This document shows positions 1 through 25,598 of a DNA stretch of 25,598 nucleotides, piece by piece. Position 1 is the stretch's first letter, and each line of letters begins with the position of its first letter. The translations under genes were made by a program, and so were the position numbers. The notes beneath the pieces are model-generated. The model worked only from the letters and a program-made list of their open reading frames with translations. It did not search any database and was not told the DNA's origin. The DNA comes from a virus (lineage: Duplodnaviria; Heunggongvirae; Uroviricota; Caudoviricetes). The stretch lies in the IMG/VR virus record IMGVR_UViG_2606217107_000001; one strand, written 5' to 3'.

Positions 1-33
1 GGATCAGTTGACCGATCCAGTGGCTGTGTAAGA

Positions 34-67
34 ATCCGGAAACGCTCACTTGTTTCCGGATTTTTTT
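34..67 (+). promoter_or_regulatory. Perfect 10-bp stem-loop plus T-tract immediately upstream of the transposase ATG (terminator-like; likely blocks read-in transcription or translation)
   Basis: atccggaaac (34..43), loop gctcactt, gtttccggat (52..61), then tttttt (62..67) directly before ATG at 68. Repeated identically in copy 2 at 24248..24281. Confidence 0.5.
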
Positions 68-1396
68 ATGCACATTGGACAGGCTCTTGATCTGGTATCC
101 CGTTACGATTCTCTGCGTAACCCACTGACTTCTCTGGGGGATTACCTCGACCCCGAACTCATCTCTCGTTGCCTTGCCGAATCAGGTACTGTAACGCTAC
201 GCAAGCGCCGTCTTCCCCTCGAAATGATGGTCTGGTGTATTGTTGGCATGGCGCTTGAGCGTAAAGAACCTCTTCACCAGATTGTGAATCGCCTGGACAT
301 CATGCTGCCGGGCAATCGCCCCTTCGTTGCCCCCAGTGCCGTTATTCAGGCCCGCCAGCGCCTGGGAAGTGAGGCTGTCCGCCGCGTGTTCACGAAAACA
401 GCGCAGCTCTGGCATAACGCCACGCCGCATCCGCACTGGTGCGGCCTGACCCTGCTGGCCATCGATGGTGTGTTCTGGCGCACACCGGATACACCAGAGA
501 ACGATGCAGCCTTCCCCCGCCAGACACATGCCGGGAACCCGGCGCTCTACCCGCAGGTCAAAATGGTCTGCCAGATGGAACTGACCAGCCATCTGCTGAC
601 GGCTGCAGCCTTCGGCACGATGAAGAACAGCGAAAATGAGCTTGCTGAGCAACTTATAGAACAAACCGGCGATAACACTCTGACGTTAATGGACAAAGGT
701 TATTACTCACTGGGACTGTTAAATGCCTGGAGCCTGGCGGGAGAACACCGCCACTGGATGATACCTCTCAGAAAGGGAGCGCAATATGAAGAGATCAGAA
801 AACTGGGTAAAGGCGATCATCTGGTGAAGCTGAAAACCAGCCCGCAGGCACGAAAAAAGTGGCCGGGACTGGGAAATGAAGTGACTGCCCGCCTGCTGAC
901 CGTGACGCGCAAAGGAAAAGTCTGCCATCTGCTGACGTCGATGACGGACGCCATGCGCTTCCCCGGAGGAGAAATGGGGGATCTGTACAGTCATCGCTGG
1001 GAAATCGAACTGGGATACAGGGAGATAAAACAGACGATGCAACGGAGCAGGCTGACGCTGAGAAGTAAAAAGCCGGAGCTTGTGGAGCAAGAGCTGTGGG
1101 GTGTCTTACTGGCTTATAATCTGGTGAGATATCAGATGATTAAAATGGCGGAACATCTGAAAGGTTACTGGCCGAATCAACTGAGTTTCTCAGAATCATG
1201 CGGAATGGTGATGAGAATGCTGATGACATTGCAGGGCGCTTCACCGGGACGTATACCGGAGCTGATGCGCGATCTTGCAAGTATGGGACAACTTGTGAAA
1301 TTACCGACAAGAAGGGAAAGGGCCTTCCCGAGAGTGGTAAAGGAGAGGCCCTGGAAATACCCCACAGCCCCGAAAAAGAGCCAGTCAGTTGCTTAA
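68..1396 (+). CDS. insG: IS4 transposase (DDE family), 442 aa
   Basis: ORF 50..1396; protein from [20 protein letters not shown]... recognised as the E. coli IS4 transposase. Start placed at ATG 68 (MHIGQ), which gives 442 aa; the track start at 50 lies inside the upstream hairpin. Confidence 0.9.
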
Positions 1397-1409
1397 CTGA
1401 CTGGCATTA
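1392..1409. repeat. IS4 right terminal inverted repeat (copy 1)
   Basis: cttaactgactggcatta; reverse complement matches the left repeat at 24198..24215 in 16 of 18 positions. Confidence 0.8.
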
Positions 1410-1552
1410 CCTCTTTGAAGGCGGTTTTTTTTGCGCTTGATTGCATGATTTTGCACGTCAATAAGTTCGTATTGACATATCCATAATGTCTGTTCTGGCG
1501 CGGATTCAGCTAATGCGGGCAACTGCATTAAAATCGTCCCACGAAGCGGGCG

Positions 1553-1571
1553 GGCGAGGCGGGGAAAGCAC
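1553..1571. other. Putative P2-type cos site (19-nt cohesive end sequence)
   Basis: GGCGAGGCGGGGAAAGCAC matches my recollection of the P2/P4 cohesive end. It lies ~170 bp from the portal gene Q, as in P2. Not verified against a database. Confidence 0.55.
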
Positions 1572-1740
1572 TGCGCGCTGGCGGTGGGGCTGATTTTATT
1601 TTTTCAGCGTCTGAGCGCGTCGTGATGGCGTTTAGATTGTGCGCCGTGGCGTTGGTGTGTCTGCGGGGTGTTTTGTGCGGTGGTGAGCGTGTGAGGGCGT
1701 GATGACGGGGTGTAAAAAAGCCGCCCGCAGGCGGCGATGT

Positions 1741-2775
1741 TCAGCCGTTGTCGGTGTCCAGTGAGTAGTTTTTAAAGCGGATGACCTCCTGACCGAGCCA
1801 GCCGTTTATCTCGCGGATCCTGTCCTGTAACGGGATAAGCTCATTGCGGACAAAGACCTTTGCCACTTTCTCAATATCACCCAGCGACCCGACGTTCTCC
1901 GGCTTACCGCCCATCAACTGAAAGGGGATGCGGTGCGCGTCCAGCAGGTCAGCGGCGCTTGCTTTTTTGATATTAAAAAAATCGTCCTTCGTTGCCACTT
2001 CACTGAGCGGGATAATTTTAATGCCGTCGGCTTTCCCCTGTGGGGCATAGAGAAACAGATTTTTAAAGTTGTTGCGGCCTTTCGACTTAACCATGTTTTC
2101 GCGAAGCATTTCGATATCGTTGCGATCCTGCACGGCATCGGTGACGTACATGATGTATCCGGCATGTGCGCCGTTTTCGTAATACTTGCGGCGGAACAGC
2201 GTGGCCGATTCATTCAGCCAGGCAGAGTTAAGGGCGCTGAGATATTCCGGCAGGCCGTACAGCTCCTGATTAATATCCGGCTCCAGCAGGTGAAACACGG
2301 AGCCGGGCGCGAAAGGTGTCGGCTCGTTGAAGGACGGCACCCACCAGTAAACATCCTCCTCAACACCACGGCGGGGATATTTTGCCGGTGAGGGTTCCAG
2401 TCTGATGACCTTACCGGTGGTGCTGTAGCGCTTTTCCAGAAACGCATTACCGAACACCAGAAAATCCAGCACAAAGCGGCTGAAATCCTGCTGGGAAAGC
2501 CACGGATGCGGGATAAATGTCGAGGCCAGAATATTGCGTTTAACGTAAATCGGTGAGCTGTGATGCACGGCAGCACGCAGGCTTTTTGCCAGACCGGTAA
2601 AGCTGATTGGTGGCTCATACCATCTGCCGTTACTGATGCATTCGACGTAATCCAGAATGTCACGGCGGTCGAGTACCGGCACCGGCTCACCAAAGGTGAA
2701 TGCCTCCATTTTCGGGGCGCTGGCGGTCATTGTTTTTGCCGCAGGTTGCGGTGTTTTCCCTTTTTTCTTGCTCAT
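1741..2775 (-). CDS. Q: Portal protein (P2 gpQ-like), 344 aa
   Basis: ORF 1741..2775 minus; protein MSKKKGKTPQPAAKTMTASAPKMEAF... recognised as P2 portal. First gene next to cos, transcribed leftward with P as in P2. Start overlaps the P stop. Confidence 0.92.
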   Translation of the reverse strand: MSKKKGKTPQPAAKTMTASAPKMEAFTFGEPVPVLDRRDILDYVECISNGRWYEPPISFTGLAKSLRAAVHHSSPIYVKRNILASTFIPHPWLSQQDFSRFVLDFLVFGNAFLEKRYSTTGKVIRLEPSPAKYPRRGVEEDVYWWVPSFNEPTPFAPGSVFHLLEPDINQELYGLPEYLSALNSAWLNESATLFRRKYYENGAHAGYIMYVTDAVQDRNDIEMLRENMVKSKGRNNFKNLFLYAPQGKADGIKIIPLSEVATKDDFFNIKKASAADLLDAHRIPFQLMGGKPENVGSLGDIEKVAKVFVRNELIPLQDRIREINGWLGQEVIRFKNYSLDTDNG

Positions 2776-4547
2776 CAGTAAAACTCCAGAATGGTGGATG
2801 TCAGCGGGGTGCTGATACCGGCGGTGAGTGGCTCATTTAACAGGGCGTGCATGGTCGCCCAGGCGAGGTCGGCGTGGCTGGCTTCCTCGCTGCGGCTGGC
2901 CTCATAGGTGGCGCTGCGTCCGCTGCTGGTCATGGTCTTGCGGATAGCCATAAACGAGCTGGTGATGTCGGTGGCGCTGACGTCATATTCCAGACAGCCA
3001 CGGCGGATGACGTCTTTTGCCTTGAGCACCATTGCGGTTTTCATTTCCGGCGTGTAGCGGATGTCGCGCGCGGCGGGATAGAACGAGCGCACAAGCTGGA
3101 ACACGCCGACACCGAGGCCGGTGGCATCAATACCGATGTATTCGACGTTGTATTTTTCGGTGAGTTTGCGGATGGATTCCGCCTGGGTGGCAAAGTCCAT
3201 GCCTTTCCACTGGTGACGCTCAAGTATTCTGAATTTGCCACCGGCCACCACCGGCGGTGCCAGTACCACGCATCCGGCGCTGTCGCCACGGTGTGACGGG
3301 TCGTAACCAATCCATACCGGTCGGGAGCCGAACGGATTTGCGGCAAACGGCGCATAGTCTTCCCATTCTTCCAGCGTGTCGACCATGCAGCGTTGCAGCT
3401 CCTCGAACGGGAACACCGACGCCTTGTCGTCAACAAATTCACACATGAACAGGTTTTTAAAATCGTCGGCGCTGTTTTCACGTTTAAGCTGCTCAATGTC
3501 GAACAGTGTGCAGCCGCCTTTCAGGGCGTCCTCAATGGTGACAATCTGCCGCCACTGGCCGTCCGCACAGAGAAGACCACCGGCAAGGGCGTTATGACTG
3601 ACGTCGATTTCCACGCGTTCGGCGGCGCTGGCGCGTCCCCGGTTGAACAGTTCACCCGACCAGAACGGGTAGGCGTCGTGCGCCAGCGTGGACGGGGTGG
3701 AGAAATAGGTCGAGCGCAGGTGACTCTGTGAGGCCATACCTGATGCCACCTTACGCAGTACCTGAAAATTCGGGATCCAGAAAATCTCGTCGACGTACAG
3801 GTCGCCGTTATGGCTCTGCGCGGTGTTGGAGTTGGTGCCGAGAAAAATCAGTTTTGCGCCGTTATTGCCCAGGACAATCGGGTCACCGGTCAGGTCAACG
3901 TCAACCAGACGGGCAAAGGCGATGATGTATTCGCGGAACACATACGCCTGCGTTTTACTGGCCGACAGAAAAATCTGGTTATGGCCGGTTTTCAGGGCGC
4001 GCAGCAGCGCCTCGCGGGAAAAATAAAACGTTGCGCCAATCTGGCGGGATTTCAGGATATCGCGGATGCGGTGCTCAAGCCCGGCACGATACCAGTGCAA
4101 CTGATAGTCGAAAGACTGCTCAAAGAAAATCTGCTCCAGCTTTTCGATGGCCTCGTCACTGAAAAAATTCTTTTTCGGTTTGCGACGCCCGCCTTTGTTG
4201 CGGTTAGCGACGTTCGGATTAAGGTCTGCCTCGTTGCCGGTCTGGCTGTAGCGGTTTACCCGTGCCAGTCGTTCAATCTGGCGTCCCAGCAGGTCAATTT
4301 CCTTGAAGTCACCGCCGGTTTTCTGCGGTTTGATGATGAGCTGGGTCAGCCGCGCTTCCAGGCTCATTTCGACACGGCTGATGGGGGCAACGCTGTCCCA
4401 GCCGTCGCGCTGTTTCCAGCTCTGCACCGTCGGGCGTTTCATCTGCAACATGGCGGCAATCTGCGGCACGGAAACCCCCTGCCAGTACAGCAGCGCCGCC
4501 TGACGACGCGGGTCGTGTAAAAGAGTGGTGTCTGTGGTGATGGTCAT
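2775..4547 (-). CDS. P: Terminase large (ATPase) subunit (P2 gpP-like)
   Basis: ORF 2775..4577 minus. Likely start is the ATG at 4547 (MTITTDTTLLHDPRR...), preceded by GAGG; an alternative in-frame start is at 4577. Recognised as P2 gpP. Confidence 0.9.
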   Translation of the reverse strand: MTITTDTTLLHDPRRQAALLYWQGVSVPQIAAMLQMKRPTVQSWKQRDGWDSVAPISRVEMSLEARLTQLIIKPQKTGGDFKEIDLLGRQIERLARVNRYSQTGNEADLNPNVANRNKGGRRKPKKNFFSDEAIEKLEQIFFEQSFDYQLHWYRAGLEHRIRDILKSRQIGATFYFSREALLRALKTGHNQIFLSASKTQAYVFREYIIAFARLVDVDLTGDPIVLGNNGAKLIFLGTNSNTAQSHNGDLYVDEIFWIPNFQVLRKVASGMASQSHLRSTYFSTPSTLAHDAYPFWSGELFNRGRASAAERVEIDVSHNALAGGLLCADGQWRQIVTIEDALKGGCTLFDIEQLKRENSADDFKNLFMCEFVDDKASVFPFEELQRCMVDTLEEWEDYAPFAANPFGSRPVWIGYDPSHRGDSAGCVVLAPPVVAGGKFRILERHQWKGMDFATQAESIRKLTEKYNVEYIGIDATGLGVGVFQLVRSFYPAARDIRYTPEMKTAMVLKAKDVIRRGCLEYDVSATDITSSFMAIRKTMTSSGRSATYEASRSEEASHADLAWATMHALLNEPLTAGISTPLTSTILEFY

Positions 4548-4720
4548 GAATACCTCGCCGTGATGAATACACGGCAAGGCTACTGAGTCGCGCCCCGCGA
4601 TTCGCTAAGGTGCTGTTGTGTCAGTGATAAGCCATCCGGGACTGATGGCGGAGGATGCGCATCGTCGGGAAACTGATGCCGACATGTGACTCCTCTAATC
4701 ACTATTCAGGACTCCTGACA
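4548..4720. promoter_or_regulatory. Divergent intergenic region expected to hold Ogr-dependent late promoters for P-Q (leftward) and O-N-M-L (rightward)
   Basis: 173-bp non-coding gap between divergently oriented P and O, as in P2. Promoter elements not resolved by eye. Confidence 0.4.
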
Positions 4721-5575
4721 ATGGCAAAAAAAGTCTCAAAATTCTTTCGTATCGGCGTTGAGGGTGACACCTGTGACGGGCGTGTCATCAGTGCGCAGGA
4801 TATTCAGGAAATGGCCGAAACCTTTGACCCGCGTGTTTATGGTTGCCGTATTAACCTGGAACATCTGCGCGGCATCCTGCCTGACGGTATTTTTAAACGT
4901 TATGGCGATGTGGCCGAACTGAAGGCCGAAAAGATTGACGATGATTCGGCGCTGAAAGGCAAATGGGCGCTGTTTGCGAAAATCACCCCGACAGATGACC
5001 TTATCGCGATGAACAAGGCCGCGCAGAAGGTCTACACCTCAATGGAAATTCAGCCGAACTTTGCCAACACCGGCAAATGTTATCTGGTGGGGCTGGCCGT
5101 CACCGATGACCCGGCAAGCCTCGGCACGGAATACCTGGAATTCTGCCGCACGGCAAAACACAACCCCCTGAACCGCTTCAAATTAAGCCCTGAAAACCTG
5201 ATTTCAGTGGCAACGCCTGTTGAGCTGGAATTTGAAGACCTGCCTGAAACCGTGTTCACCGCCCTGACCGAAAAGGTGAAATCCATTTTTGGCCGCAAAC
5301 AGGCCAGCGATGACGCCCGTCTGAATGACGTGCATGAAGCGGTGACCGCTGTTGCTGAACATGTGCAGGAAAAACTGAGCGCCACTGAGCAGCGCCTCTC
5401 TGAGATGGAAACCGCCTTTTCCGCACTTAAGCAGGAGGTGACTGACAGGGCGGATGAAACCAGCCAGGCATTCACCCGCCTGAAAAACAGTCTCGACCAC
5501 ACCGAAAGTCTGACCCAGCAGCGCCGCAGCAAGGCCACCGGTGGTGGCGGTGATGCCCTGCTGACGAACTGCTGA
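4721..5575 (+). CDS. O: Capsid scaffolding protein (P2 gpO-like), 284 aa
   Basis: ORF 4655..5575; start placed at ATG 4721 (MAKKVSKFFRIG...), giving 284 aa as recalled for P2 gpO. Confidence 0.9.
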   Translation: MAKKVSKFFRIGVEGDTCDGRVISAQDIQEMAETFDPRVYGCRINLEHLRGILPDGIFKRYGDVAELKAEKIDDDSALKGKWALFAKITPTDDLIAMNKAAQKVYTSMEIQPNFANTGKCYLVGLAVTDDPASLGTEYLEFCRTAKHNPLNRFKLSPENLISVATPVELEFEDLPETVFTALTEKVKSIFGRKQASDDARLNDVHEAVTAVAEHVQEKLSATEQRLSEMETAFSALKQEVTDRADETSQAFTRLKNSLDHTESLTQQRRSKATGGGGDALLTNC

Positions 5576-5633
5576 CCGGCGTCAGTCAGTCCGGGAAAAC
5601 CTTCACGATTAACCCTTAATTTCAGGAAAAACT

Positions 5634-6707
5634 ATGCGCCAGGAAACCCGCTTTAAATTTAATGCTTACCTGTCCCGTGTTGCCGAACTGAACGGCATCG
5701 ACGCCGGTGATGTGTCGAAAAAATTCACCGTTGAACCGTCGGTCACCCAGACCCTGATGAACACCATGCAGGAGTCCTCTGACTTTCTGACCCGCATCAA
5801 CATTGTGCCGGTCAGCGAAATGAAAGGGGAAAAAATTGGCATCGGTGTCACCGGCTCCATCGCCAGCACCACCGACACCGCCGGTGGCACCGAGCGTCAG
5901 CCGAAGGACTTCTCGAAGCTGGCGTCTAACAAGTACGAATGCGACCAGATTAACTTCGATTTTTATATCCGCTACAAAACGCTGGACCTGTGGGCGCGTT
6001 ATCAGGATTTCCAGCTCCGTATCCGTAACGCCATTATCAAACGCCAGTCCCTTGATTTAATCATGGCCGGTTTTAACGGCGTGAGGCGTGCCGAAACCTC
6101 TGACCGCAGCAGCAATCCGATGCTGCAGGATGTGGCGGTCGGCTGGCTGCAGAAATACCGCAATGAAGCCCCGGCGCGCGTGATGAGCAAGGTCACTGAC
6201 GAGGAAGGTCACACGACCTCTGAGGTCATCCGCGTGGGTAAGGGCGGTGATTATGCCAGCCTCGATGCACTGGTGATGGATGCGACCAACAACCTGATTG
6301 AGCCGTGGTATCAGGAAGACCCTGACCTTGTGGTGATTGTGGGGCGTCAGCTACTGGCGGACAAGTATTTCCCCATCGTTAACAAGGAGCAGGACAACAG
6401 CGAGATGCTGGCCGCTGACGTCATCATCAGCCAGAAACGCATCGGCAACCTGCCGGCGGTACGCGTCCCGTACTTCCCGGCGGATGCGATGCTCATCACG
6501 AAGCTGGAAAACCTGTCCATCTACTACATGGATGACAGCCATCGCCGCGTGATTGAGGAAAACCCGAAACTCGACCGCGTGGAGAACTACGAGTCAATGA
6601 ATATTGATTACGTGGTGGAAGACTACGCCGCCGGTTGCCTGGTGGAAAAAATTAAGGTCGGTGATTTCTCCACACCGGCTAAGGCGACCGCAGAGCCGGG
6701 AGCGTAA
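5634..6707 (+). CDS. N: Major capsid protein (P2 gpN-like), 357 aa
   Basis: ORF 5634..6707; AGGAAA ribosome-binding site upstream; protein MRQETRFKFNAYLSRVAELNG... recognised as P2 gpN. Confidence 0.93.
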   Translation: MRQETRFKFNAYLSRVAELNGIDAGDVSKKFTVEPSVTQTLMNTMQESSDFLTRINIVPVSEMKGEKIGIGVTGSIASTTDTAGGTERQPKDFSKLASNKYECDQINFDFYIRYKTLDLWARYQDFQLRIRNAIIKRQSLDLIMAGFNGVRRAETSDRSSNPMLQDVAVGWLQKYRNEAPARVMSKVTDEEGHTTSEVIRVGKGGDYASLDALVMDATNNLIEPWYQEDPDLVVIVGRQLLADKYFPIVNKEQDNSEMLAADVIISQKRIGNLPAVRVPYFPADAMLITKLENLSIYYMDDSHRRVIEENPKLDRVENYESMNIDYVVEDYAAGCLVEKIKVGDFSTPAKATAEPGA

Positions 6708-6710
6708 CCG

Positions 6711-7454
6711 ATGACGAGTCCCGCACAGCGCCACATGATGCGGGTCTCGGCAGCGATGACCGCGCAGCGGGAAGCCGCCCCGCTGCGACATGCAACTGTC
6801 TATGAGCAGATGCTGGTTAAGCTCGCCGCAGACCAGCGCACACTGAAAGCGATTTATTCAAAAGAGCTTAAGGCCGCGAAAAAGCGCGAACTGCTGCCGT
6901 TCTGGTTGCCGTGGGTGAACGGCGTGCTGGAGCAGGGCAAAGGTGCACAGGATGACATTCTGATGACGGTCATGCTGTGGCGTCTGGATACCGGCGATAT
7001 TGCCGGTGCGCTGGAGATTGCCCGTTATGCCCTGAAGTACGGTCTGACCATGCCGGGTAAACACCGCCGCACCCCGCCGTACATGTTCACCGAGGAGGTG
7101 GCGCTCGCGGCCATGCGCGCTCACGCTGCCGGTGAGTCTGTGGATACCCGCCTGCTGACGGACACCCTTGAACTGACCGCCACGGCAGACATGCCTGATG
7201 AAGTGCGCGCAAAGCTGCACAAAATCACCGGTCTGTTTCTGCGTGACGCTGGTGATGCCGCAGGTGCGCTGGCGCACCTGCAACGTGCGACACAGCTCGA
7301 CTGTCAGGCAGGCGTCAGAAAAGAGATTGAACGACTGGAGCGGGAGCTGAAACCGAAGCCGGAGCCGCAGCCCGAAGCGGTCACCCGTGCCCCGCGTAAG
7401 ACCCGGAGCGTGACACCGGCAAAACGTGGACGCCCGAAAAAGAAAGCCAGTTAA
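6711..7454 (+). CDS. M: Terminase small (endonuclease) subunit (P2 gpM-like), 247 aa
   Basis: ORF 6711..7454; lysine/proline-rich basic C-terminus; position and length as for P2 gpM. Confidence 0.9.
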   Translation: MTSPAQRHMMRVSAAMTAQREAAPLRHATVYEQMLVKLAADQRTLKAIYSKELKAAKKRELLPFWLPWVNGVLEQGKGAQDDILMTVMLWRLDTGDIAGALEIARYALKYGLTMPGKHRRTPPYMFTEEVALAAMRAHAAGESVDTRLLTDTLELTATADMPDEVRAKLHKITGLFLRDAGDAAGALAHLQRATQLDCQAGVRKEIERLERELKPKPEPQPEAVTRAPRKTRSVTPAKRGRPKKKAS

Positions 7455-7552
7455 CAACGAATGCGCCCCGCGCCAGGGCGGCACGCCGGTCAGTGAGGGT
7501 GAATCACCTGACGCTGTACCGGCGTCCACCGCCCGACTTTTCAGAGGTAGTC

Positions 7553-8062
7553 ATGATGACGCTGATTATTCCGCGAAAGGAGGCTCCCGTGTCCGGTGAG
7601 GGTACGGTGGTCATCCCGCAACCGGCAGGCGACGAGCCGGTGATTAAAAACACGTTCTTTTTTCCCGATATCGACCCGAAGCGCGTCCGGGAACGTATGC
7701 GCCTTGAGCAGACCGTCGCCCCCGCCCGTCTGCGTGAGGCCATCAAGTCAGGCATGGCTGAAACAAATGCGGAGCTGTACGAGTACCGCGAACAGAAAAT
7801 TGCCGCCGGTTTTACGCGTCTGGCGGACGTTCCGGCGGACGACATCGACGGTGAAAGTATCAAAGTTTTTTACTACGAGCGCGCCGTGTGTGCGATGGCG
7901 ACCGCGTCGCTTTATGAGCGTTATCGCGGCGTGGATGCCAGTGCGAAAGGCGACAAGAAGGCTGACAGCATTGACAGCACCATTGATGAACTGTGGCGGG
8001 ATATGCGCTGGGCGGTGGCGCGTATCCAGGACAAGCCGCGCTGCATCGTGAGTCAAATCTGA
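7553..8062 (+). CDS. L: Head completion/stabilisation protein (P2 gpL-like), 169 aa
   Basis: ORF 7493..8062; start placed at ATG 7553 (MMTLIIPRKE...), preceded by GAGG at 7544..7547. Confidence 0.88.
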   Translation: MMTLIIPRKEAPVSGEGTVVIPQPAGDEPVIKNTFFFPDIDPKRVRERMRLEQTVAPARLREAIKSGMAETNAELYEYREQKIAAGFTRLADVPADDIDGESIKVFYYERAVCAMATASLYERYRGVDASAKGDKKADSIDSTIDELWRDMRWAVARIQDKPRCIVSQI

Positions 8063-8265
8063 TGAAGACCTTTGCGCTACAGGGCGACACGCTCGACGCC
8101 ATTTGTGTCCGGTATTACGGGCGCACTGAGGGCGTGGTTGAGACCGTGCTCGCCGCAAATCCGGGACTGGCTGAACTGGGTGCGGTGCTGCCACACGGCA
8201 CCGCCGTCGAACTGCCCGACGTTCAGACCGCGCCCGTGGCTGAAACTGTCAATCTGTGGGAGTAA
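8062..8265 (+). CDS. X: Tail protein X (P2 gpX-like), 67 aa
   Basis: Inside ORF 7993..8265; start at ATG 8062 (MKTFALQGDTLDAICVRYYG...), overlapping the L stop. Confidence 0.85.
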   Translation: MKTFALQGDTLDAICVRYYGRTEGVVETVLAANPGLAELGAVLPHGTAVELPDVQTAPVAETVNLWE

Positions 8266-8268
8266 CGC

Positions 8269-9047: not shown

Positions 9048-9061
9048 ACGGAGTAAACACC

Positions 9062-11966: not shown

Positions 11967-11970
11967 AACC

Positions 11971-15707: not shown

Positions 15708-15710
15708 TTT

Positions 15711-17446: not shown

Positions 17447-17474
17447 GGCGGGCGAATTGCCCGCCTTTTCTTTA
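17447..17474 (+). terminator. Intrinsic terminator (plus strand) between the AT-rich insert and FI
   Basis: ggcgggc (17447..17453), loop gaatt, gcccgcc (17459..17465), followed by ttttctttat; T-run only on the plus strand. Confidence 0.6.
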
Positions 17475-17569
17475 TCTGTTGTTTCATCCACTGACCAGCT
17501 AGGTCAAATAGCGTCTCATGCACTGCCCAACAGACAATAGTTGCACCCATTAACCACGGAGTTAAACGG
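17475..17569 (+). promoter_or_regulatory. Region expected to hold the late promoter for the FI-FII-E-T-U-D operon
   Basis: Non-coding stretch between the terminator and the FI start, the position of P2 P_F; motif not confirmed. Confidence 0.35.
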
Positions 17570-18760
17570 ATGAGTGACTATCATCACGGCGTGCAGGTGC
17601 TGGAGATTAACGACGGCACCCGCGTCATTTCCACCGTATCCACTGCCATTGTCGGCATGGTCTGCACGGCCAGCGATGCGGATGCGGAAACCTTCCCCCT
17701 CAATAAACCTGTGCTGATTACCAATGTGCAGAGCGCAATTGCAAAGGCTGGTAAAAAAGGCACGCTGGCGGCATCGTTGCAGGCCATCGCCGACCAGTCA
17801 AAACCGGTCACCGTTGTCGTGCGTGTGGAAGACGGCACCGGCGACGACGAGGAAACGAAACTCGCGCAGACCGTTTCCAATATCATCGGCACCACCGACG
17901 AAAACGGTCAGTACACCGGACTGAAAGCCCTGCTGGCGGCGGAGTCGGTAACCGGTGTTAAACCGCGTATTCTCGGCGTGCCGGGACTGGACACCAAAGA
18001 GGTGGCTGTTGCACTGGCATCAGTCTGTCAGAAGTTGCGCGCTTTCGGGTATATCAGCGCATGGGGCTGTAAAACCATTTCCGAGGTGAAAGCCTACCGT
18101 CAGAATTTCAGCCAGCGTGAGCTGATGGTCATCTGGCCGGATTTCCTCGCATGGGATACGGTCACCAGTACCACCGCCACCGCGTATGCCACCGCCCGTG
18201 CGCTGGGGCTGCGCGCTAAAATCGACCAGGAGCAGGGCTGGCATAAAACGCTGTCCAATGTCGGGGTGAACGGTGTTACCGGCATCAGCGCCTCTGTATT
18301 CTGGGATTTGCAGGAGTCCGGCACCGATGCTGACCTGCTTAACGAGTCAGGCGTCACAACGCTGATTCGCCGCGACGGTTTTCGCTTCTGGGGTAACCGT
18401 ACCTGCTCTGATGACCCGCTGTTCCTCTTTGAAAACTACACCCGCACCGCGCAGGTGCTGGCTGACACGATGGCTGAGGCGCACATGTGGGCGGTGGACA
18501 AGCCCATCACCGCAACGCTGATTCGCGACATCGTTGACGGCATCAATGCCAAATTCCGTGAGCTGAAAACAAACGGCTATATCGTGGATGCGACCTGCTG
18601 GTTCAGCGAAGAATCCAACGATGCGGAAACCCTCAAGGCCGGAAAACTGTATATCGACTACGACTATACCCCGGTGCCTCCTCTTGAAAACCTGACCCTG
18701 CGCCAGCGTATTACCGATAAATACCTGGCAAATCTGGTCACCTCGGTTAACAGCAATTAA
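17570..18760 (+). CDS. FI: Tail sheath protein (P2 gpFI-like), 396 aa
   Basis: ORF 17570..18760; GGAG ribosome-binding site; recognised as P2 FI. Confidence 0.93.
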   Translation: MSDYHHGVQVLEINDGTRVISTVSTAIVGMVCTASDADAETFPLNKPVLITNVQSAIAKAGKKGTLAASLQAIADQSKPVTVVVRVEDGTGDDEETKLAQTVSNIIGTTDENGQYTGLKALLAAESVTGVKPRILGVPGLDTKEVAVALASVCQKLRAFGYISAWGCKTISEVKAYRQNFSQRELMVIWPDFLAWDTVTSTTATAYATARALGLRAKIDQEQGWHKTLSNVGVNGVTGISASVFWDLQESGTDADLLNESGVTTLIRRDGFRFWGNRTCSDDPLFLFENYTRTAQVLADTMAEAHMWAVDKPITATLIRDIVDGINAKFRELKTNGYIVDATCWFSEESNDAETLKAGKLYIDYDYTPVPPLENLTLRQRITDKYLANLVTSVNSN

Positions 18761-18772
18761 GGAGCCTGACCG

Positions 18773-19291
18773 ATGGCAATGCCGCGCAAACTCAAGTTAA
18801 TGAACGTCTTTCTGAACGGCTACAGCTATCAGGGCGTCGCGAAGTCCGTCACGCTGCCAAAACTGACCCGTAAGCTCGAAAACTATCGCGGTGCGGGGAT
18901 GAACGGCAGCGCACCGGTAGACCTCGGCCTTGATGACGATGCGCTGTCAATGGAGTGGTCGCTCGGTGGCTTCCCGGATTCGGTTATCTGGGAGCTTTAC
19001 GCCGCAACCGGTGTGGATGCCGTACCGATTCGTTTTGCAGGCTCTTACCAGCGCGACGATACCGGCGAAACGGTGGCCGTCGAGGTGGTCATGCGTGGAC
19101 GTCAGAAAGAAATCGACACCGGCGAGGGCAAACAGGGAGAAGACACCGAGTCGAAAATCTCCGTGGTCTGCACCTATTTCCGGCTGACGATGGACGGCAA
19201 GGAGCTGGTCGAAATCGACACCATCAACATGATTGAGAAGGTGAACGGCGTCGACCGGCTGGAGCAACACCGCCGCAATATCGGCCTGTGA
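18773..19291 (+). CDS. FII: Tail tube protein (P2 gpFII-like), 172 aa
   Basis: ORF 18773..19291; AAGGAG ribosome-binding site; recognised as P2 FII. Confidence 0.93.
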   Translation: MAMPRKLKLMNVFLNGYSYQGVAKSVTLPKLTRKLENYRGAGMNGSAPVDLGLDDDALSMEWSLGGFPDSVIWELYAATGVDAVPIRFAGSYQRDDTGETVAVEVVMRGRQKEIDTGEGKQGEDTESKISVVCTYFRLTMDGKELVEIDTINMIEKVNGVDRLEQHRRNIGL

Positions 19292-19298
19292 TTTTCAT

Positions 19299-19319
19299 CC
19301 GGTCAGCCTGGCTGACCGG
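19299..19319 (+). other. Perfect 9-bp stem, 3-nt loop hairpin between FII and E (possible attenuator or RNA-stability element)
   Basis: ccggtcagc ctg gctgaccgg; no T-run follows, so not a canonical terminator. Confidence 0.3.
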
Positions 19320-19347
19320 TTAACCCTGATTCATAAGTGAGAAAACC

Positions 19348-19623
19348 ATGAACAAAGAAAATGTCATTACCCTGGACAATCCGGTCAAACGTGGTGAGCA
19401 GGTTATCGAACAGGTCACGCTGATGAAACCCAGTGCCGGGACGCTGCGCGGTGTCAGTCTGGCAGCGGTCGCGAACTCCGAAGTCGATGCACTGATTAAG
19501 GAGCTGCCGCGCATGACGGCACCGATGCTGACCGAGCAGGAAGTCGCCGCGCTGGAACTGCCTGACCTTGTGGCGCTGGCCGGTAAGGTGGTCGGTTTTT
19601 TGTCGCCGAACTCGGTGCAGTGA
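19348..19623 (+). CDS. E: Tail assembly chaperone (P2 gpE-like), 91 aa
   Basis: ORF 19348..19623; position and length as for P2 gpE. Confidence 0.9.
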   Translation: MNKENVITLDNPVKRGEQVIEQVTLMKPSAGTLRGVSLAAVANSEVDALIKELPRMTAPMLTEQEVAALELPDLVALAGKVVGFLSPNSVQ

Positions 19624-19775
19624 CGTTTCCAAAAAATCTGTCGGTCGATGACCTGATGGCGGATGTGGCAGTGATATTTCACTGGCCGCCATCAGAACTG
19701 TATCCCATGAGCCTGACCGAACTCATCACATGGCGCGAAAAGGCGCTCCGGCGAAGCGGAAACACGAATGAGTAA
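19348..19775 (+). CDS. E: Tail assembly chaperone E+E' fusion made by a programmed -1 frameshift at T TTT TTG (19596..19602), 142 aa
   Basis: Slippery heptamer gg-tttttt-g near the 3' end of E. The -1 frame stays open to a stop at 19773..19775 (...FPKNLSVDDLMADVAVIFHWPPSELYPMSLTELITWREKALRRSGNTNE), overlapping the T start. Product length matches recalled P2 E+E'. Confidence 0.75.
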
Positions 19776-22215
19776 CAATGTAAAATTACAGGTATTGCTC
19801 AGGGCTGTTGACCAGGCATCCCGCCCGTTTAAATCCATCCGCACAGCGAGCAAGTCGCTGTCGGGGGATATCCGGGAAACACAAAAATCACTGCGCGAGC
19901 TGAACGGTCACGCATCCCGTATTGAGGGATTCCGCAAGACCAGCGCACAGCTCGCCGTGACTGGTCATGCACTTGAAAAGGCACGGCAGGAAGCCGAAGC
20001 CCTTGCCACACAGTTTAAAAATACCGAACGTCCGACCCGTGCTCAGGCGAAAGTGCTGGAATCCGCAAAGCGTGCGGCGGAGGACTTACAGGCGAAATAT
20101 AACCGCCTGACGGACTCCGTTAAACGCCAGCAGCGGGAACTGGCCGCTGTGGGAATTAATACCCGCAATCTTGCACATGATGAGCAGGGACTGAAAAACC
20201 GTATCAGTGAAACCACCGCACAGCTTAACCGTCAGCGTGACGCACTGGCGCGTGTCAGTGCACAACAGGCAAAACTTAACGCAGTAAAACAGCGTTATCA
20301 GGCAGGCAAGGAACTGGCCGGAAATATGGCCTCAGTGGGCGCTGCCGGTGTGGGGATTGCGGCGGCGGGAACGATGGCCGGAGTTAAGTTGCTGATGCCC
20401 GGTTATGAGTTTGCGCAGAAAAACTCAGAATTGCAGGCCGTGCTCGGAGTGGCAAAAGACTCCGCCGAAATGACCGCACTACGCAAACAGGCGCGCCAGC
20501 TCGGTGACAACACCGCCGCCTCGGCGGATGATGCGGCCGGTGCACAGATAATCATCGCGAAAGCGGGTGGGGATGTTGATGCCATTCAGGCGGCAACGCC
20601 GGTCACGCTGAATATGGCGCTGGCGAACCGCCGCACGATGGAAGAAAACGCCGCCCTGCTGATGGGGATGAAATCCGCCTTTCAGCTTTCAAACGATAAG
20701 GTCGCTCATATCGGGGATGTTCTCTCCATGACGATGAACAAAACCGCCGCCGATTTTGACGGCATGAGCGATGCGCTGACCTATGCCGCACCTGTGGCAA
20801 AAAATGCCGGTGTCAGCATTGAAGAAACCGCCGCAATGGTCGGGGCGCTGCATGATGCAAAAATCACAGGCTCAATGGCGGGGACGGGAAGCCGTGCCGT
20901 GTTAAGTCGCCTGCAGGCACCGACGGGAAAAGCATGGGATGCACTCAAAGAGCTTGGCGTGAAAACCTCAGACAGTAAGGGGAATACCCGACCAGTATTT
21001 ACCATTCTGAAAGAAATGCAGGCCAGCTTTGAGAAAAACCGGCTCGGTACTGCCCAGCAGGCTGAATACATGAAAACTATTTTCGGGGAGGAGGCCAGCT
21101 CAGCCGCCGCCGTGCTGATGACTGCCGCCTCAACCGGAAAGCTGGACAAACTGACCGCTGCGTTTAAAGCCTCAGACGGGAAGACCGCCGAGCTGGTAAA
21201 TATCATGCAGGACAACCTCGGCGGTGACTTTAAGGAGTTTCAGTCCGCTTATGAGGCGGTGGGGACAGACCTGTTTGACCAGCAGGAAGGCGCGCTACGT
21301 AAGCTCACGCAGACGGCCACAAAGTATGTGTTAAAACTCGACGGCTGGATACAGAAAAACAAATCACTGGCGTCAACCATTGGCCTCATTGCCGGTGGTG
21401 CGCTGGCGCTTACTGGCATCATCGGTGCAATTGGTCTTGTAGCCTGGCCGGTTATCACCGGCATCAATGCCATCATCGCGGCAGCAGGCGCAATGGGGGC
21501 AATCTTCACGACGGTTGGTAGTGCCGTTATGACGGCCATCGGGGCGATTAGCTGGCCGGTTGTGGCTGTGGTGGCCGCCATTGTCGCCGGGGCGTTGCTT
21601 ATCCGTAAATACTGGGAGCCTGTCAGCGCATTCTTTGGCGGTGTGGTTGAAGGGCTGAAAGCGGCATTTGCGCCGGTGGGGGAACTGTTCACGCCACTGA
21701 AGCCGGTGTTTGACTGGCTGGGCGAAAAGTTACAGGCCGCGTGGCAGTGGTTTAAAAACCTGATTGCCCCGGTCAAAGCCACCCAGGACACCCTGAACCG
21801 TTGCCGTGATACTGGCGTCATGTTCGGGCAGGCACTGGCTGACGCGCTGATGCTGCCGCTTAATGCGTTCAACAAACTGCGCAGCGGTATTGACTGGGTA
21901 CTGGAAAAGCTCGGGGTCATCAACAAAGAGTCAGACACACTTGACCAGACCGCCGCCAGAACTCATGTCGCCACGTATGGCACCGGTGGTTATATTCCGG
22001 CGACCAGCTCTTATGCAGGCTATCAGACTTATCAGCCGGTCACGGCACCGGCTGGCCGCTCTTATGTAGACCAGAGTAAAAACGAATATCACATCAGCCT
22101 GACGGGTGGTACTGAGCCGGGGACACAGCTTGACCGCCAGTTACAGGATGCGCTCGAAAAATACGAGCGGGATAAACGTGCGCGCGCCCGTGCCAGCATG
22201 ATGCATGACGGTTAA
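19768..22215 (+). CDS. T: Tail tape measure protein (P2 gpT-like), 815 aa
   Basis: ORF 19768..22215; long helical protein with a glycine/alanine-rich hydrophobic central segment; position as for P2 T. Confidence 0.92.
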   Translation: MSNNVKLQVLLRAVDQASRPFKSIRTASKSLSGDIRETQKSLRELNGHASRIEGFRKTSAQLAVTGHALEKARQEAEALATQFKNTERPTRAQAKVLESAKRAAEDLQAKYNRLTDSVKRQQRELAAVGINTRNLAHDEQGLKNRISETTAQLNRQRDALARVSAQQAKLNAVKQRYQAGKELAGNMASVGAAGVGIAAAGTMAGVKLLMPGYEFAQKNSELQAVLGVAKDSAEMTALRKQARQLGDNTAASADDAAGAQIIIAKAGGDVDAIQAATPVTLNMALANRRTMEENAALLMGMKSAFQLSNDKVAHIGDVLSMTMNKTAADFDGMSDALTYAAPVAKNAGVSIEETAAMVGALHDAKITGSMAGTGSRAVLSRLQAPTGKAWDALKELGVKTSDSKGNTRPVFTILKEMQASFEKNRLGTAQQAEYMKTIFGEEASSAAAVLMTAASTGKLDKLTAAFKASDGKTAELVNIMQDNLGGDFKEFQSAYEAVGTDLFDQQEGALRKLTQTATKYVLKLDGWIQKNKSLASTIGLIAGGALALTGIIGAIGLVAWPVITGINAIIAAAGAMGAIFTTVGSAVMTAIGAISWPVVAVVAAIVAGALLIRKYWEPVSAFFGGVVEGLKAAFAPVGELFTPLKPVFDWLGEKLQAAWQWFKNLIAPVKATQDTLNRCRDTGVMFGQALADALMLPLNAFNKLRSGIDWVLEKLGVINKESDTLDQTAARTHVATYGTGGYIPATSSYAGYQTYQPVTAPAGRSYVDQSKNEYHISLTGGTEPGTQLDRQLQDALEKYERDKRARARASMMHDG

Positions 22216-22229
22216 GGAGGTGACGAAAA

Positions 22230-22709
22230 ATGATGCTCGCGTTAGGTATGTTTGTTTTTATGCGCCAGACGCTGCCACACCAGACCATGCAGCGTGAATC
22301 AGATTATCGCTGGCCGTCAAATTCCCGTATCGGTAAACGGGATGCCTACCAGTTTCTCGGTGTTGGCGAGGAAAACATGACGCTTGCCGGTGTGCTTTAT
22401 CCTGAACTGACCGGTGGAAAGCTGACGATGACCACGCTCAGACTGATGGCAGAGGAAGGCCGGGCGTGGCCGTTGCTGGATGGCACCGGCATGATTTACG
22501 GCATGTATGTCATCAGCAGGGTGAGTGAAACAGGGAGTATTTTCTTTGCAGACGGCACACCCCGGAAAATTGATTTTACGCTGTCGCTCACCCGCGTTGA
22601 TGAATCACTGGCCGCGCTTTATGGCGATATCGGTAAACAGGCGGAATCGCTCATCGGTAAGGCTGGCAGTATGGCGACCAGATTCACGGGTATGACGGGG
22701 GCGGGATAA
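22230..22709 (+). CDS. U: Tail protein (P2 gpU-like), 159 aa
   Basis: ORF 22230..22709; AAGGAGG ribosome-binding site; recognised as P2 U. Confidence 0.9.
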   Translation: MMLALGMFVFMRQTLPHQTMQRESDYRWPSNSRIGKRDAYQFLGVGEENMTLAGVLYPELTGGKLTMTTLRLMAEEGRAWPLLDGTGMIYGMYVISRVSETGSIFFADGTPRKIDFTLSLTRVDESLAALYGDIGKQAESLIGKAGSMATRFTGMTGAG

Positions 22710-23872
22710 TGCTGGATGCGCTGACATTTGATGCTGGCAGTACGCTGACGCCGGATTACATGCTGATGCTCGACAGCAGGGATATTACCGGCAATATCAG
22801 TGACCGTCTGATGAGCATGACCCTGACGGATAACCGGGGCTTTGAGGCTGACCAGCTTGATATTGAACTGAACGATGCCGACGGGCAGGTCGGGCTGCCG
22901 GTTCGTGGCGCTGTCCTGACGGTGTATATCGGCTGGAAAGGGTTTGCCCTGGTATGCAAAGGGAAATTTACCGTTGATGAGGTTGAACACCGGGGCGCGC
23001 CGGATGTGGTTACCATCCGCGCCCGGAGTGCAGATTTTCGCGGGACGCTCAATTCCCGCCGGGAAGGCTCCTGGCATGACACCACGCTCGGTGCGATTGT
23101 TGAGGCGATAGCCTCCCGTAACAGGCTGGAAGCCAGTGTCGCTCCGTCACTGGCAAGAATTAAAATCCCGCACATCGACCAGTCGCAGGAGTCTGATGCG
23201 AAATTCCTGACCCGTCTTGCAGAACGCAACGGTGGTGAGGTCTCGGTAAAAATGGGAAAACTGTTGTTTCTCAAAGCGGGGCAGGGGGTGACGGCCAGTG
23301 GTAAAAAAATCCCGCAGGTCACCATAACCCGCAGCGACGGCGACCGCCATCATTTTGCGATTGCTGACCGTGGAGCCTATACCGGCGTAACGGCAAAGTG
23401 GTTACACACCAAAGACCCGAAGCCACAAAAGCAGAAGGTAAAACTGAAACGCAAAAAGAAAGAGAAACACCTGCGCGCACTGGAGCACCCGAAAGCGAAA
23501 CCGGTCAGGCAGAAGAAAGCGCCTAAAGTACCGGAAGCGCGCGAAGGTGAATACATGGCCGGTGAGGCTGACAACGTTTTTGCCCTGACTACGGTATATG
23601 CCACGAAAGCGCAGGCCATGCGCGCCGCTCAGGCGAAGTGGGATAAACTGCAACGGGGTGTGGCGGAGTTCTCCATCAGCCTGGCTACCGGTCGGGCAGA
23701 TATTTACACGGAAACACCGGTTAAAGTGTCAGGCTTTAAGCGCGTCATAGACGAGCAGGACTGGACAATCACTAAGGTGACACATTTTCTGAATAATAGC
23801 GGCTTCACGACGTCCCTGGAGCTTGAGGTCAGGCTTTCTGATGTGGAGTACGAAACAGAAGATGATGAGTGA
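22709..23872 (+). CDS. D: Tail protein (P2 gpD-like), 387 aa
   Basis: ORF 22709..23872; lysine-rich central segment; recognised as P2 D. Confidence 0.9.
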   Translation: MLDALTFDAGSTLTPDYMLMLDSRDITGNISDRLMSMTLTDNRGFEADQLDIELNDADGQVGLPVRGAVLTVYIGWKGFALVCKGKFTVDEVEHRGAPDVVTIRARSADFRGTLNSRREGSWHDTTLGAIVEAIASRNRLEASVAPSLARIKIPHIDQSQESDAKFLTRLAERNGGEVSVKMGKLLFLKAGQGVTASGKKIPQVTITRSDGDRHHFAIADRGAYTGVTAKWLHTKDPKPQKQKVKLKRKKKEKHLRALEHPKAKPVRQKKAPKVPEAREGEYMAGEADNVFALTTVYATKAQAMRAAQAKWDKLQRGVAEFSISLATGRADIYTETPVKVSGFKRVIDEQDWTITKVTHFLNNSGFTTSLELEVRLSDVEYETEDDE

Positions 23873-23953
23873 TGTTTTTGTTTTATCTGTTTGTTTTATA
23901 AGGATAAATTAACTAAAATGGCACCATCAACAAAACCGGAAGAGGTGCTCGCG
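23873..23953 (+). promoter_or_regulatory. AT-rich region upstream of ogr, presumably its own promoter
   Basis: 81-bp AT-rich gap before the ogr start; motif not resolved. Confidence 0.3.
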
Positions 23954-24172
23954 ATGTTTCATTGTCCTTTATGCCAGCATGCCGCACATGCGCGTACAAG
24001 TCGCTATATCACTGACACGACAAAAGAGCGTTATCACCAGTGTCAGAACGTGAATTGCAGCGCCACATTCATCACTTATGAGTCGGTACAGCGATATATC
24101 GTGAAGCCGGGAGAAGTCCACGCCGTAAGGCCGCACCCGTTGCCGTCAGGGCAGCAAATTATGTGGATGTGA
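23954..24172 (+). CDS. ogr: Late transcription activator Ogr (zinc-finger), 72 aa
   Basis: Inside ORF 23891..24172; start at ATG 23954 (MFHCPLCQHAAHARTSRY...), GAGG at 23942..23945; four cysteines (CPLC ... CQNVNC). Confidence 0.9.
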   Translation: MFHCPLCQHAAHARTSRYITDTTKERYHQCQNVNCSATFITYESVQRYIVKPGEVHAVRPHPLPSGQQIMWM

Positions 24173-24197
24173 TCACAAAAATAGCCCCTCAGTTGAG

Positions 24198-24215
24198 TAA
24201 TGCCGATCAGTTAAG
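24198..24215. repeat. IS4 left terminal inverted repeat (copy 2)
   Basis: taatgccgatcagttaag; imperfect inverse of 1392..1409. Confidence 0.8.
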
Positions 24216-24281
24216 GATCAGTTGACCGATCCAGTGGCTGTGTAAGAATCCGGAAACGCTCACTTGTTTCCGGATTTTTTT

Positions 24282-25598
24282 ATGCACATTGGACAGGCTC
24301 TTGATCTGGTATCCCGTTACGATTCTCTGCGTAACCCACTGACTTCTCTGGGGGATTACCTCGACCCCGAACTCATCTCTCGTTGCCTTGCCGAATCAGG
24401 TACTGTAACGCTACGCAAGCGCCGTCTTCCCCTCGAAATGATGGTCTGGTGTATTGTTGGCATGGCGCTTGAGCGTAAAGAACCTCTTCACCAGATTGTG
24501 AATCGCCTGGACATCATGCTGCCGGGCAATCGCCCCTTCGTTGCCCCCAGTGCCGTTATTCAGGCCCGCCAGCGCCTGGGAAGTGAGGCTGTCCGCCGCG
24601 TGTTCACGAAAACAGCGCAGCTCTGGCATAACGCCACGCCGCATCCGCACTGGTGCGGCCTGACCCTGCTGGCCATCGATGGTGTGTTCTGGCGCACACC
24701 GGATACACCAGAGAACGATGCAGCCTTCCCCCGCCAGACACATGCCGGGAACCCGGCGCTCTACCCGCAGGTCAAAATGGTCTGCCAGATGGAACTGACC
24801 AGCCATCTGCTGACGGCTGCAGCCTTCGGCACGATGAAGAACAGCGAAAATGAGCTTGCTGAGCAACTTATAGAACAAACCGGCGATAACACTCTGACGT
24901 TAATGGACAAAGGTTATTACTCACTGGGACTGTTAAATGCCTGGAGCCTGGCGGGAGAACACCGCCACTGGATGATACCTCTCAGAAAGGGAGCGCAATA
25001 TGAAGAGATCAGAAAACTGGGTAAAGGCGATCATCTGGTGAAGCTGAAAACCAGCCCGCAGGCACGAAAAAAGTGGCCGGGACTGGGAAATGAAGTGACT
25101 GCCCGCCTGCTGACCGTGACGCGCAAAGGAAAAGTCTGCCATCTGCTGACGTCGATGACGGACGCCATGCGCTTCCCCGGAGGAGAAATGGGGGATCTGT
25201 ACAGTCATCGCTGGGAAATCGAACTGGGATACAGGGAGATAAAACAGACGATGCAACGGAGCAGGCTGACGCTGAGAAGTAAAAAGCCGGAGCTTGTGGA
25301 GCAAGAGCTGTGGGGTGTCTTACTGGCTTATAATCTGGTGAGATATCAGATGATTAAAATGGCGGAACATCTGAAAGGTTACTGGCCGAATCAACTGAGT
25401 TTCTCAGAATCATGCGGAATGGTGATGAGAATGCTGATGACATTGCAGGGCGCTTCACCGGGACGTATACCGGAGCTGATGCGCGATCTTGCAAGTATGG
25501 GACAACTTGTGAAATTACCGACAAGAAGGGAAAGGGCCTTCCCGAGAGTGGTAAAGGAGAGGCCCTGGAAATACCCCACAGCCCCGAAAAAGAGCCAG
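24282..25598 (+). CDS. insG: IS4 transposase, second copy (partial; C-terminal ~4 codons and stop outside the window)
   Basis: Same reading frame and sequence as 68..1396, shifted by 24214 bp; runs off the window end. Confidence 0.88.

Follow-up and report, generated by a model that had tools for sequence, protein, structure and literature searches.

The 25,598-bp window analysed here, which is the entire draft contig JNMF01000058.1, ends in the sequence with which it begins, raising the question of whether it represents a circular molecule written past its origin or a piece of a prophage caught between two copies of one repeat. Both readings were put forward in the initial annotation, as a circle of about 24.2 kb with a single IS4 and as two IS4 copies in direct orientation around a 22.8-kb prophage segment. 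Two separate, direct IS4 insertions probably bracket the late half of a chromosomal P2-like prophage, with the contig broken inside both copies; the arrangement is ordinary and not a circular molecule.

Terminal identity and the IS4 element

Positions 1..1384 and 24215..25598 had been described as identical, and a self-comparison of the window at an offset of 24,214 bore this out at 1384 of 1384 positions, the full overlap possible at that offset in 25,598 bases. Other offsets between 24,000 and 24,500 never exceeded 60% identity. Chance cannot account for an exact 1.4-kb repeat, and the repeated sequence is IS4, a common insertion sequence of Escherichia coli. Joining 24198..25598 to 1385..1409 rebuilds an element of 1426 bp that is identical to the complete IS4 of a sister contig (JHDI01000155.1) and 98–99.7% identical, over nearly its full length, to copies in 1,718 closed E. 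coli genomes that carry the annotation ‘IS4-like element IS4 family transposase’. The terminal repeats lie at 24198..24215 and 1392..1409, as placed in the initial annotation, and the 1426-bp element is IS4, as identified there.

The terminal inverted repeats are 18 bp long and imperfect. The left one (TAATGCCGATCAGTTAAG) is at 24198..24215 (plus strand); the right one of copy A (1392..1409, plus strand) is an exact match to CTTAACTGACTGGCATTA, an end also present in all nine complete IS4 copies surveyed. Copy A (1..1409, plus strand) spans element positions 18–1426, lacking the first 17 nt because the contig begins there, and copy B (24198..25598, plus strand) spans element positions 1–1401, lacking the last 25 nt because the contig ends there; the two are in direct orientation. 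The open reading frame at 50..1396 (plus strand) encodes a single DDE transposase of 448 aa, with matches to Pfam Nterm_IS4 (E = 3e-33) and DDE_Tnp_1 (E = 3e-31), and the annotated IS4 transposases of closed genomes are likewise 448 aa long. Nothing in the element itself differs from IS4 of E. coli (insG; the founding member of the IS4 family). The insertion sites alone are particular, one of them (site B) being occupied in five closed genomes and the other (site A) seen occupied in the present lineage only.

Assemblies of the same segment stop at different points in or at IS4, as is expected when a multi-copy repeat lies on either side of unique sequence. JJLQ01000132.1 (24,564 bp), also an IMG/VR UViG, runs from IS4 position 8 to IS4 position 357, with 10 nt more of IS4 on the left than the window and a terminal direct repeat of 350 bp. 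JHDI01000155.1 (24,592 bp) carries copy B complete (1426 bp) and ends 1 nt later, and a Logan short-read contig ends 25 nt into IS4; none of these assemblies reaches more than 1 nt beyond the far end of IS4. The contigs differ from each other by a few SNPs (e.g., 5 in 11.5 kb) and therefore derive from different isolates, with the arrangement inherited.

A P2-like late region and its chromosomal context

Based on the Pfam assignments of the called genes, the unique part of the window holds a complete P2-like late region (1741..24172). From the left, the gene order is Q and P (minus strand), then O, N, M, L, X, Y, K, lysA/B/C, R, S, V, W, J, I, H, and G, followed by a 259-aa cargo ORF (minus strand) and then FI, FII, E/E′, T, U, D, and ogr (23954..24172; Pfam Ogr_Delta). 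A P2-type cos, GGCGAGGCGGGGAAAGCAC, occurs at 1553..1571 (plus strand; one exact match, 0 expected by chance), a 19-nt sequence reported as the cohesive end of P2-related phages (PMC3931495). The late region is 96–97.6% identical to P2-like prophages in >1,000 closed E. coli genomes, and the best closed-genome matches to it stop exactly at window position 24197.

Compared to P2-like (Peduovirus) prophages located at cpxP-fieF, the segment has the same cos, late-gene order and content, ogr, and fieF-pfkA neighbours, and such prophages likewise have accessory-gene slots between gpA and cos and between G and FI. The window differs in holding the late half only, with int, C, cox, B, gpA, and the cargo gene predicted to lie beyond copy A, off the contig. 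In related prophages the early-region genes (integrase, C/cox, gpA, and ori) are found to the left of site A, and no gpA, ori, integrase, C/repressor, or cox was detected among the Pfam-annotated called genes of the window. The 22.8-kb segment that had been described as a bracketed prophage is prophage DNA, as claimed, but only its late half (cos and Q to ogr), and the contig is without roughly one third of the phage genome.

This gene content bears directly on the circular reading, a 24,214-bp molecule with one IS4 that could be the product of excision between two IS4 copies. The ends overlap exactly, cos is on the segment, and recombination between two IS4 copies would leave the excised circle with just such a hybrid element, flanked on its left by site B and on its right by site A. 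However, the overlap is IS4 in three assemblies with differing stop points, unlike an arbitrary wrap-around, and the arrangement is inherited across isolates, yet the segment carries no gpA/ori, integrase, or other replication module. With cos and the late genes but without gpA/ori, integrase, or repressor, the segment could not persist as a circle. An autonomous circular replicon or complete phage genome was likewise rejected, as the terminal overlap is IS4, there is no replication gene, and a sister contig is linked to the chromosome. Direct terminal repeats of circular genomes, or terminal redundancy of phages, similarly give an exact direct repeat at the contig ends (here 1384 bp, or 350 bp in the IMG/VR version), but the repeat in this case is an insertion sequence of the host, at which the contig breaks off.

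The chromosomal link was obtained from JAPMDB010000021.1 (82,939 bp), a contig retrieved using a lineage-specific variant of LysA; look-ups with the widely shared late proteins (terminase, LysC, and capsid) returned unrelated long contigs only. JAPMDB010000021.1 begins with the final 75 nt of IS4, has a site-A junction identical to that of the window, and differs in the late region at 5 of 18,153 bp (99.97% identical). The ogr terminator is intact on this contig and is followed by fieF, pfkA, sbp, cdh, tpiA, and more chromosomal genes. This continuity into fieF-pfkA-tpiA places the segment on the chromosome, at the cpxP-fieF attachment site. With junction A and the late region joined to fieF-tpiA in a sister strain, the circle is extremely unlikely, and nothing positive emerged for the wrapped ~24.2-kb molecule offered in the initial annotation. 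Two direct IS4 copies around a prophage segment are instead favoured by the sister contigs, the half-targets at each junction, and the chromosomal linkage.

The same contig weighs against a tandem amplification through IS4 (IS4-late-IS4-late-IS4), in which some molecules would truly read from ogr through IS4 to cos. Unequal crossing-over can act on direct repeats 24 kb apart, and the assembly graph produced would match the inferred one, but JAPMDB010000021.1 has the region in a single-copy chromosomal context and an amplification would need to be retained in several isolates differing by SNPs with no evident selection, making this very unlikely. Repeats are also a frequent cause of misjoins, though a chimeric assembly of unrelated pieces through IS4 can be almost entirely discounted. 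The unique part is collinear from end to end with many P2-like prophages, both junctions recur in independent assemblies, and IS4 is confined to the contig ends with none inside.

Insertion sites in terminator hairpins

Classically, IS4 is 1426 bp in length, generates repeats of 11–13 bp, and has a target consensus of AAA-N20-TTT. Literature searches on the assembly accessions and on this target consensus gave no usable result. In a survey of nine complete copies in closed genomes, all were 1426 bp and each had an 11–13-bp target duplication, centred in every case on the loop of an A-run/hairpin/T-run site, such that simple insertion with target duplication was the rule (9/9). As read from relatives without the insertions, sites A and B are A-run/hairpin/T-run hairpins that match the nine surveyed sites; site B fits the AAA-N20-TTT consensus exactly and site A fits within its T-run. 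IS4 targets terminator hairpins very specifically, and consequently several closed genomes have it in the ogr terminator, either by repeated insertion or through the spread of one insertion.

Site A is the terminator of an upstream accessory (cargo) gene of HIRAN/HipA type, and the IS4 end there lies 143 bp from cos. Its right half occupies 1410..1432 (plus strand), comprising a predicted copy of the target duplication (CCTCTTTGAAGG), the remaining stem, and a T-run, with bases 1410..1421 directly flanking IS4 copy A reading cctctttgaagg. Ecol_656, L036, L041, L046–L049, and L051 have the site uninterrupted (...ACATAAACCGCCTCTTTGAAGGCGGTTTTTTTT...), and their alignments to the window start precisely at 1410; relatives with an empty site A are 99.3–99.5% identical, and isolated 33.8-kb phages also have the site empty. 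Its fold is a hairpin of about −14.5 kcal/mol with a U-run after it. At the inner junction, the right end of IS4 (...CTGGCATTA) abuts CCTCTTTGAAGGCGG, and the inner half of the site is intact to the single base. The site-A IS4 junction was absent from all closed E. coli genomes searched, and an exact pattern for this inner junction had no match in metagenome and GTDB-representative collections.

Site B is the ogr terminator, the left half of which lies at 24173..24197 (plus strand) and corresponds to half of the uninterrupted site in relatives (AAAAATAGCCCCTCAGTTGAGGGGCTTTATTT; L005, L007, and L009). A 13-bp copy of the target duplication (CCCCTCAGTTGAG; 24185..24197, plus strand) ends at the element, bases 24186..24197 flanking IS4 copy B being ccctcagttgag, and the inner junction passes from the terminator (...AGCCCCTCAGTTGAG) to the left end of IS4 (TAATGCCGATC). 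The fold is stable (−22 kcal/mol, z-score −5.9). In five closed genomes IS4 occupies exactly this position in the ogr terminator, and in the one of the five that was examined, 23CRST038, the element has CCCCTCAGTTGAG on both sides and is followed by fieF, in a prophage that is complete. The initial annotation had noted that the sequences flanking the two IS4 ends differ and are not the target duplication of a single insertion, which is correct, as each is one half of a separate terminator target.

Two insertions in place probably account for these junctions. On this reading, a P2-like prophage between cpxP and fieF on the E. coli chromosome has received two separate IS4 insertions in one orientation, copy A in the terminator hairpin after the HIRAN/HipA-type gene and copy B in the hairpin right after ogr, on the side of attR/fieF. 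The element cuts the loop region of such A-run/hairpin/T-run palindromes, duplicating 11–13 bp, so that each visible flank is half of a hairpin. With more than one copy of IS4 in the genome, the assembler would be blocked at IS4 and would write the 22.8-kb segment as a contig entering IS4 at both ends, hence the 1384-bp terminal identity.

The composite transposons Tn5 (IS50) and Tn10 (IS10) likewise have two copies of one insertion sequence around a segment, though the IS4 copies here are direct rather than inverted. Each inner junction is half of its own native target, and therefore the copies were inserted separately and in place. A composite transposon moved as a unit was rejected, both inner junctions being exact halves of native prophage terminators; the earlier description of the arrangement as composite-transposon-like holds for its geometry, but not for movement of the segment.

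Outer junctions and implications for circularity calls

We infer that the outer flanks of this contig are the other hairpin halves, in the early region on the left and on the attR-fieF side on the right. Under two in-place insertions, copy A would join the early region to the left end of IS4, predicted as the cargo-gene sequence ...AACCGCCTCTTTGAAGG followed directly by TAATGCCGATC, and copy B would join the right end of IS4 to attR-fieF, predicted as ...CTGGCATTA followed directly by CCCCTCAGTTGAGGGGCTTTATT. Scans with exact patterns, allowing for the 11–13-bp duplications, gave 0 matches to either outer junction in viral, metagenome, and GTDB-representative collections; these apparently lack the rest of the genomes of these strains, making the absence of matches, for the inner junction A as well, uninformative. 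A look-up by the HIRAN/HipA-type protein gave no route to a contig with the early region: its 90% cluster has 422 member sequences, and the cluster representative occurs on one unrelated 2.7-kb contig. No gene calls span the outer junctions, and ORFs entering either end of IS4 stop within nine codons.

The outer flank of copy A is the point at which a rearranged prophage could be accommodated. The late region would still be bracketed by IS4, but an IS4-mediated deletion, inversion, or translocation would have left it as a stranded remnant with DNA other than the early region outside copy A. This flank occurs in no assembly, every contig including JAPMDB010000021.1 stopping in IS4, and the site-A insertion occurs in no closed genome. 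Nothing positive was found in favour of a rearrangement, however, and the base-perfect inner half-site is as for a simple insertion, the type with target duplication observed in all nine surveyed copies; we consider a prior rearrangement unlikely.

The direct IS pair primes the prophage for the loss of its entire structural half by homologous recombination. Recombination between the IS4 copies might also yield a 24.2-kb circle, carrying cos and all the structural genes but none for replication or immunity, that is packaged by a P2-like helper as an accidental satellite-like or transducing element, although we regard this as highly improbable. P2 packages monomeric circles. If such packaging occurred, the helper would be a co-resident or superinfecting P2-like phage acting via cos, and the chromosome would be left, reciprocally, with a domesticated prophage reduced to its early part, immunity and the HIRAN/HipA cargo included.

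A unique segment flanked on both sides by the same host insertion sequence gives an exact terminal direct repeat in draft assemblies, and terminal repeats derived from insertion sequences should not be taken as evidence of a complete circular genome. The IMG/VR entry for this segment is 24.6 kb long and has a terminal repeat of 350 bp, and software that treats terminal repeats as circularity would score two-thirds of a prophage as complete. None of the isolated P2-like phages searched carry IS4; the phage records that do contain the element number two, both lambdoid.

IS4 at the contig ends

The initial annotation had reported identical sequence at the two ends of the window, and 1..1384 and 24215..25598 matched at 1384 of 1384 positions, the maximum overlap possible at an offset of 24,214 within 25,598 bases. 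The terminal inverted repeats of IS4 lie where it had placed them (left, 24198..24215; right, 1392..1409). Joining 24198..25598 to 1385..1409 yields a 1426-bp element without differences from the complete IS4 copy of the sister contig JHDI01000155.1, and the IS4-annotated copies in 1,718 closed E. coli genomes share 98–99.7% identity with it. Nterm_IS4 and DDE_Tnp_1 domains were found in ORF 50..1396 of the left copy (copy A, 1..1409); the element is IS4 itself. A 47-aa gene called over the IS4/prophage join (1385..1528, − strand), whose final seven codons and stop are the terminal inverted repeat of IS4, was found only in contigs of this lineage and served as a junction marker; it is almost certainly an annotation artefact.

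By exact-protein look-up, the window is the complete contig JNMF01000058.1 (25,598 bp; draft assembly GCA_000700105.1), and its unique segment recurs in other draft assemblies with differing stop points. JJLQ01000132.1 (24,564 bp) is equal in length to IMG/VR UViG_2582580962_000001, and both have a left end 10 nt past that of the window, with the same 10 nt; the IMG/VR record starts at IS4 position 8 and ends at IS4 position 357. JHDI01000155.1 (24,592 bp) ends one nucleotide after IS4 position 1426 and, judged from its total length, should start near IS4 position 1050, and a Logan short-read contig common to five samples ends 25 nt inside IS4. No assembly extended beyond the distal end of IS4 by more than one base. 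Three coincidences with mobile-element boundaries would not arise from a circle wrapped at an arbitrary point, but would from a unique segment between multi-copy repeats. The contigs are separated by a few SNPs (e.g., 5 in 11.5 kb), so they represent different isolates of one lineage in which the arrangement was inherited. The terminal repeat is a consequence of assembly, and such an IS-derived repeat imitates the signal used for calling viral contigs complete and circular.

Target sites and inner junctions

All nine complete IS4 copies taken from closed genomes were 1426 bp in length, with target duplications of 11–13 bp centred on a hairpin loop, and all nine targets were intergenic, terminator-like palindromes of A-run, hairpin and T-run (for example fbaB-gatY, lipA-tatE, htpX-yebQ, after rrf, and beside a tRNA-Pro gene). 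The target rule across this nine-copy survey is very strict, which accounts for recurrent insertion into the terminator of ogr.

The right flank of copy A, CCTCTTTGAAGGCGGTTTTTTTT, is the right half of ...ACATAAACCGCCTCTTTGAAGGCGGTTTTTTTT..., which is unbroken in closed genome Ecol_656 directly after a HIRAN/HipA-type cargo gene (site A). This site is also empty in close relatives 99.3–99.5% identical to the window, with alignments starting exactly at 1410, and unbroken in two isolated 33.8-kb phages. The left flank of the right-hand copy (copy B, 24198..25598), ...AAAAATAGCCCCTCAGTTGAG, makes up the left half of AAAAATAGCCCCTCAGTTGAGGGGCTTTATTT, the ogr terminator (site B), which is intact in three near-identical relatives. 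Each empty site is predicted to fold as a hairpin followed by a U-run. The two visible flanks are thus halves of two different IS4 targets and not one target duplication, as had been noted, and on this sequence comparison the two inner junctions are explained by two separate insertions. At both junctions the prophage sequence remains native, which means that the IS4 copies were inserted in place; the description of the arrangement as composite-transposon-like is apt for its geometry, but not for movement as a unit.

The position of copy A is the terminator of cargo in the gpA-cos slot. Among otherwise similar prophages the contents of this slot, immediately left of site A, vary widely (reverse transcriptases/retrons, GmrSD and HEPN, DNA methylases, AAA ATPases, protein kinases, HIRAN/HipA with an exonuclease); it is the known accessory or defence hot spot of P2.

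Probable chromosomal setting and history

In a sister strain, contig JAPMDB010000021.1 (82,939 bp; GCA_027979845.1) opens with the final 75 nt of IS4, has a site-A junction identical to that of the window and matches its late region with 5 mismatches in 18,153 bp, then continues from an intact ogr terminator through attR into fieF, pfkA, sbp, cdh, tpiA and beyond. In this sister strain the late region in its entirety, together with the IS4/cos junction, is thus physically chromosomal and occupies the cpxP-fieF attachment site, where related prophages are located in closed genomes. Five closed genomes carry IS4 in the ogr terminator at exactly the position and orientation of copy B; the copy in 23CRST038 is flanked by a duplication of 13 bp, CCCCTCAGTTGAG, with fieF next to it, and belongs to a prophage in which gpA, cargo, portal and terminase genes lie left of the late region. 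The window's segment holds no replication, integration or immunity functions, and its gene content between the IS4 copies includes no integrase, C, cox, B or gpA. The P2 origin sits within gene A, so the segment has no P2 origin. A 24.2-kb circle without such functions would not be heritable across several carrier isolates. Together with the sister-strain linkage and the closed-genome ogr insertions, this points to the chromosome and against the wrapped circle that had been proposed; the other proposal, two direct copies, agrees with that linkage and with the half-targets at both inner junctions. In some molecules the segment may be tandemly amplified or excised as a circle.

The most parsimonious history adds one insertion to the state of the sister strain: IS4 would have been at site A alone, and a further copy would then have inserted at the recurrent hot spot, the ogr terminator. 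The DNA left of copy A may instead be something other than the early region, as no closed genome has a site-A insertion, and pattern scans of three collections, apparently without the rest of the strains' genomes, returned neither outer junction (cargo gene/IS4 left end; IS4 right end/attR-fieF). Under the two-insertion history, homologous recombination between copies A and B would remove cos and all structural genes, leaving an early-only remnant with one IS4, and the prophage, if still excised, would have a genome ~2.9 kb longer than those of related phage isolates (roughly 33.8 kb).

Base 1 of the 23CRST038 record (NZ_AP045810.1) falls at the prophage gpA replication-endonuclease gene, and the same prophage sequence occurs at identical low coordinates (4682–5013) in at least 11 other closed genomes, which suggests that an automatic start-fixing tool treated the replication gene of P2 as the start gene of a chromosome or plasmid.

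Prophage content

A complete P2-like late region occupies 1741..24172, starting with Q and P (− strand) and continuing with O, N, M, L, X, Y, K, lysA/B/C, R, S, V, W, J, I, H, G, a 259-aa accessory ORF, FI, FII, E/E', T, U, D and ogr. The P2-type 19-nt cohesive-end sequence GGCGAGGCGGGGAAAGCAC, quoted as such in PMC3931495, lies at 1553..1571. At least 80% of the late region is present in >1,000 closed E. coli genomes (best identity, 97.6%), and homology to the best-ranked genomes ends exactly at 24197, the IS4 boundary. The phage portion is that of an ordinary P2-like prophage.

The accessory slot of P2 that separates tail-fibre assembly gene G from sheath gene FI is occupied by the 259-aa ORF (16390..17169, − strand), which had no Pfam or PADLOC match, its sole match being PHROG 7729 (function not known). 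This slot holds different cargo in related prophages, such as an SduA_C (Shedu) domain protein, and by this analogy the ORF may have a so far uncharacterised accessory or anti-phage role. Tail-fibre gene H (13413..15707) contains three overlapping copies of a 226-nt unit at 13931..14420 (spacing, 132 nt or 44 codons; 82–86% identity), a repeated module of the fibre shaft. A related P2-like prophage in GCA_052905945.1 has an internal deletion (~9378/9379) that fuses head-completion gene L (window ~8010) to the tail gene E region (window ~19323), with loss of the lysis, baseplate, fibre, sheath and tube genes.
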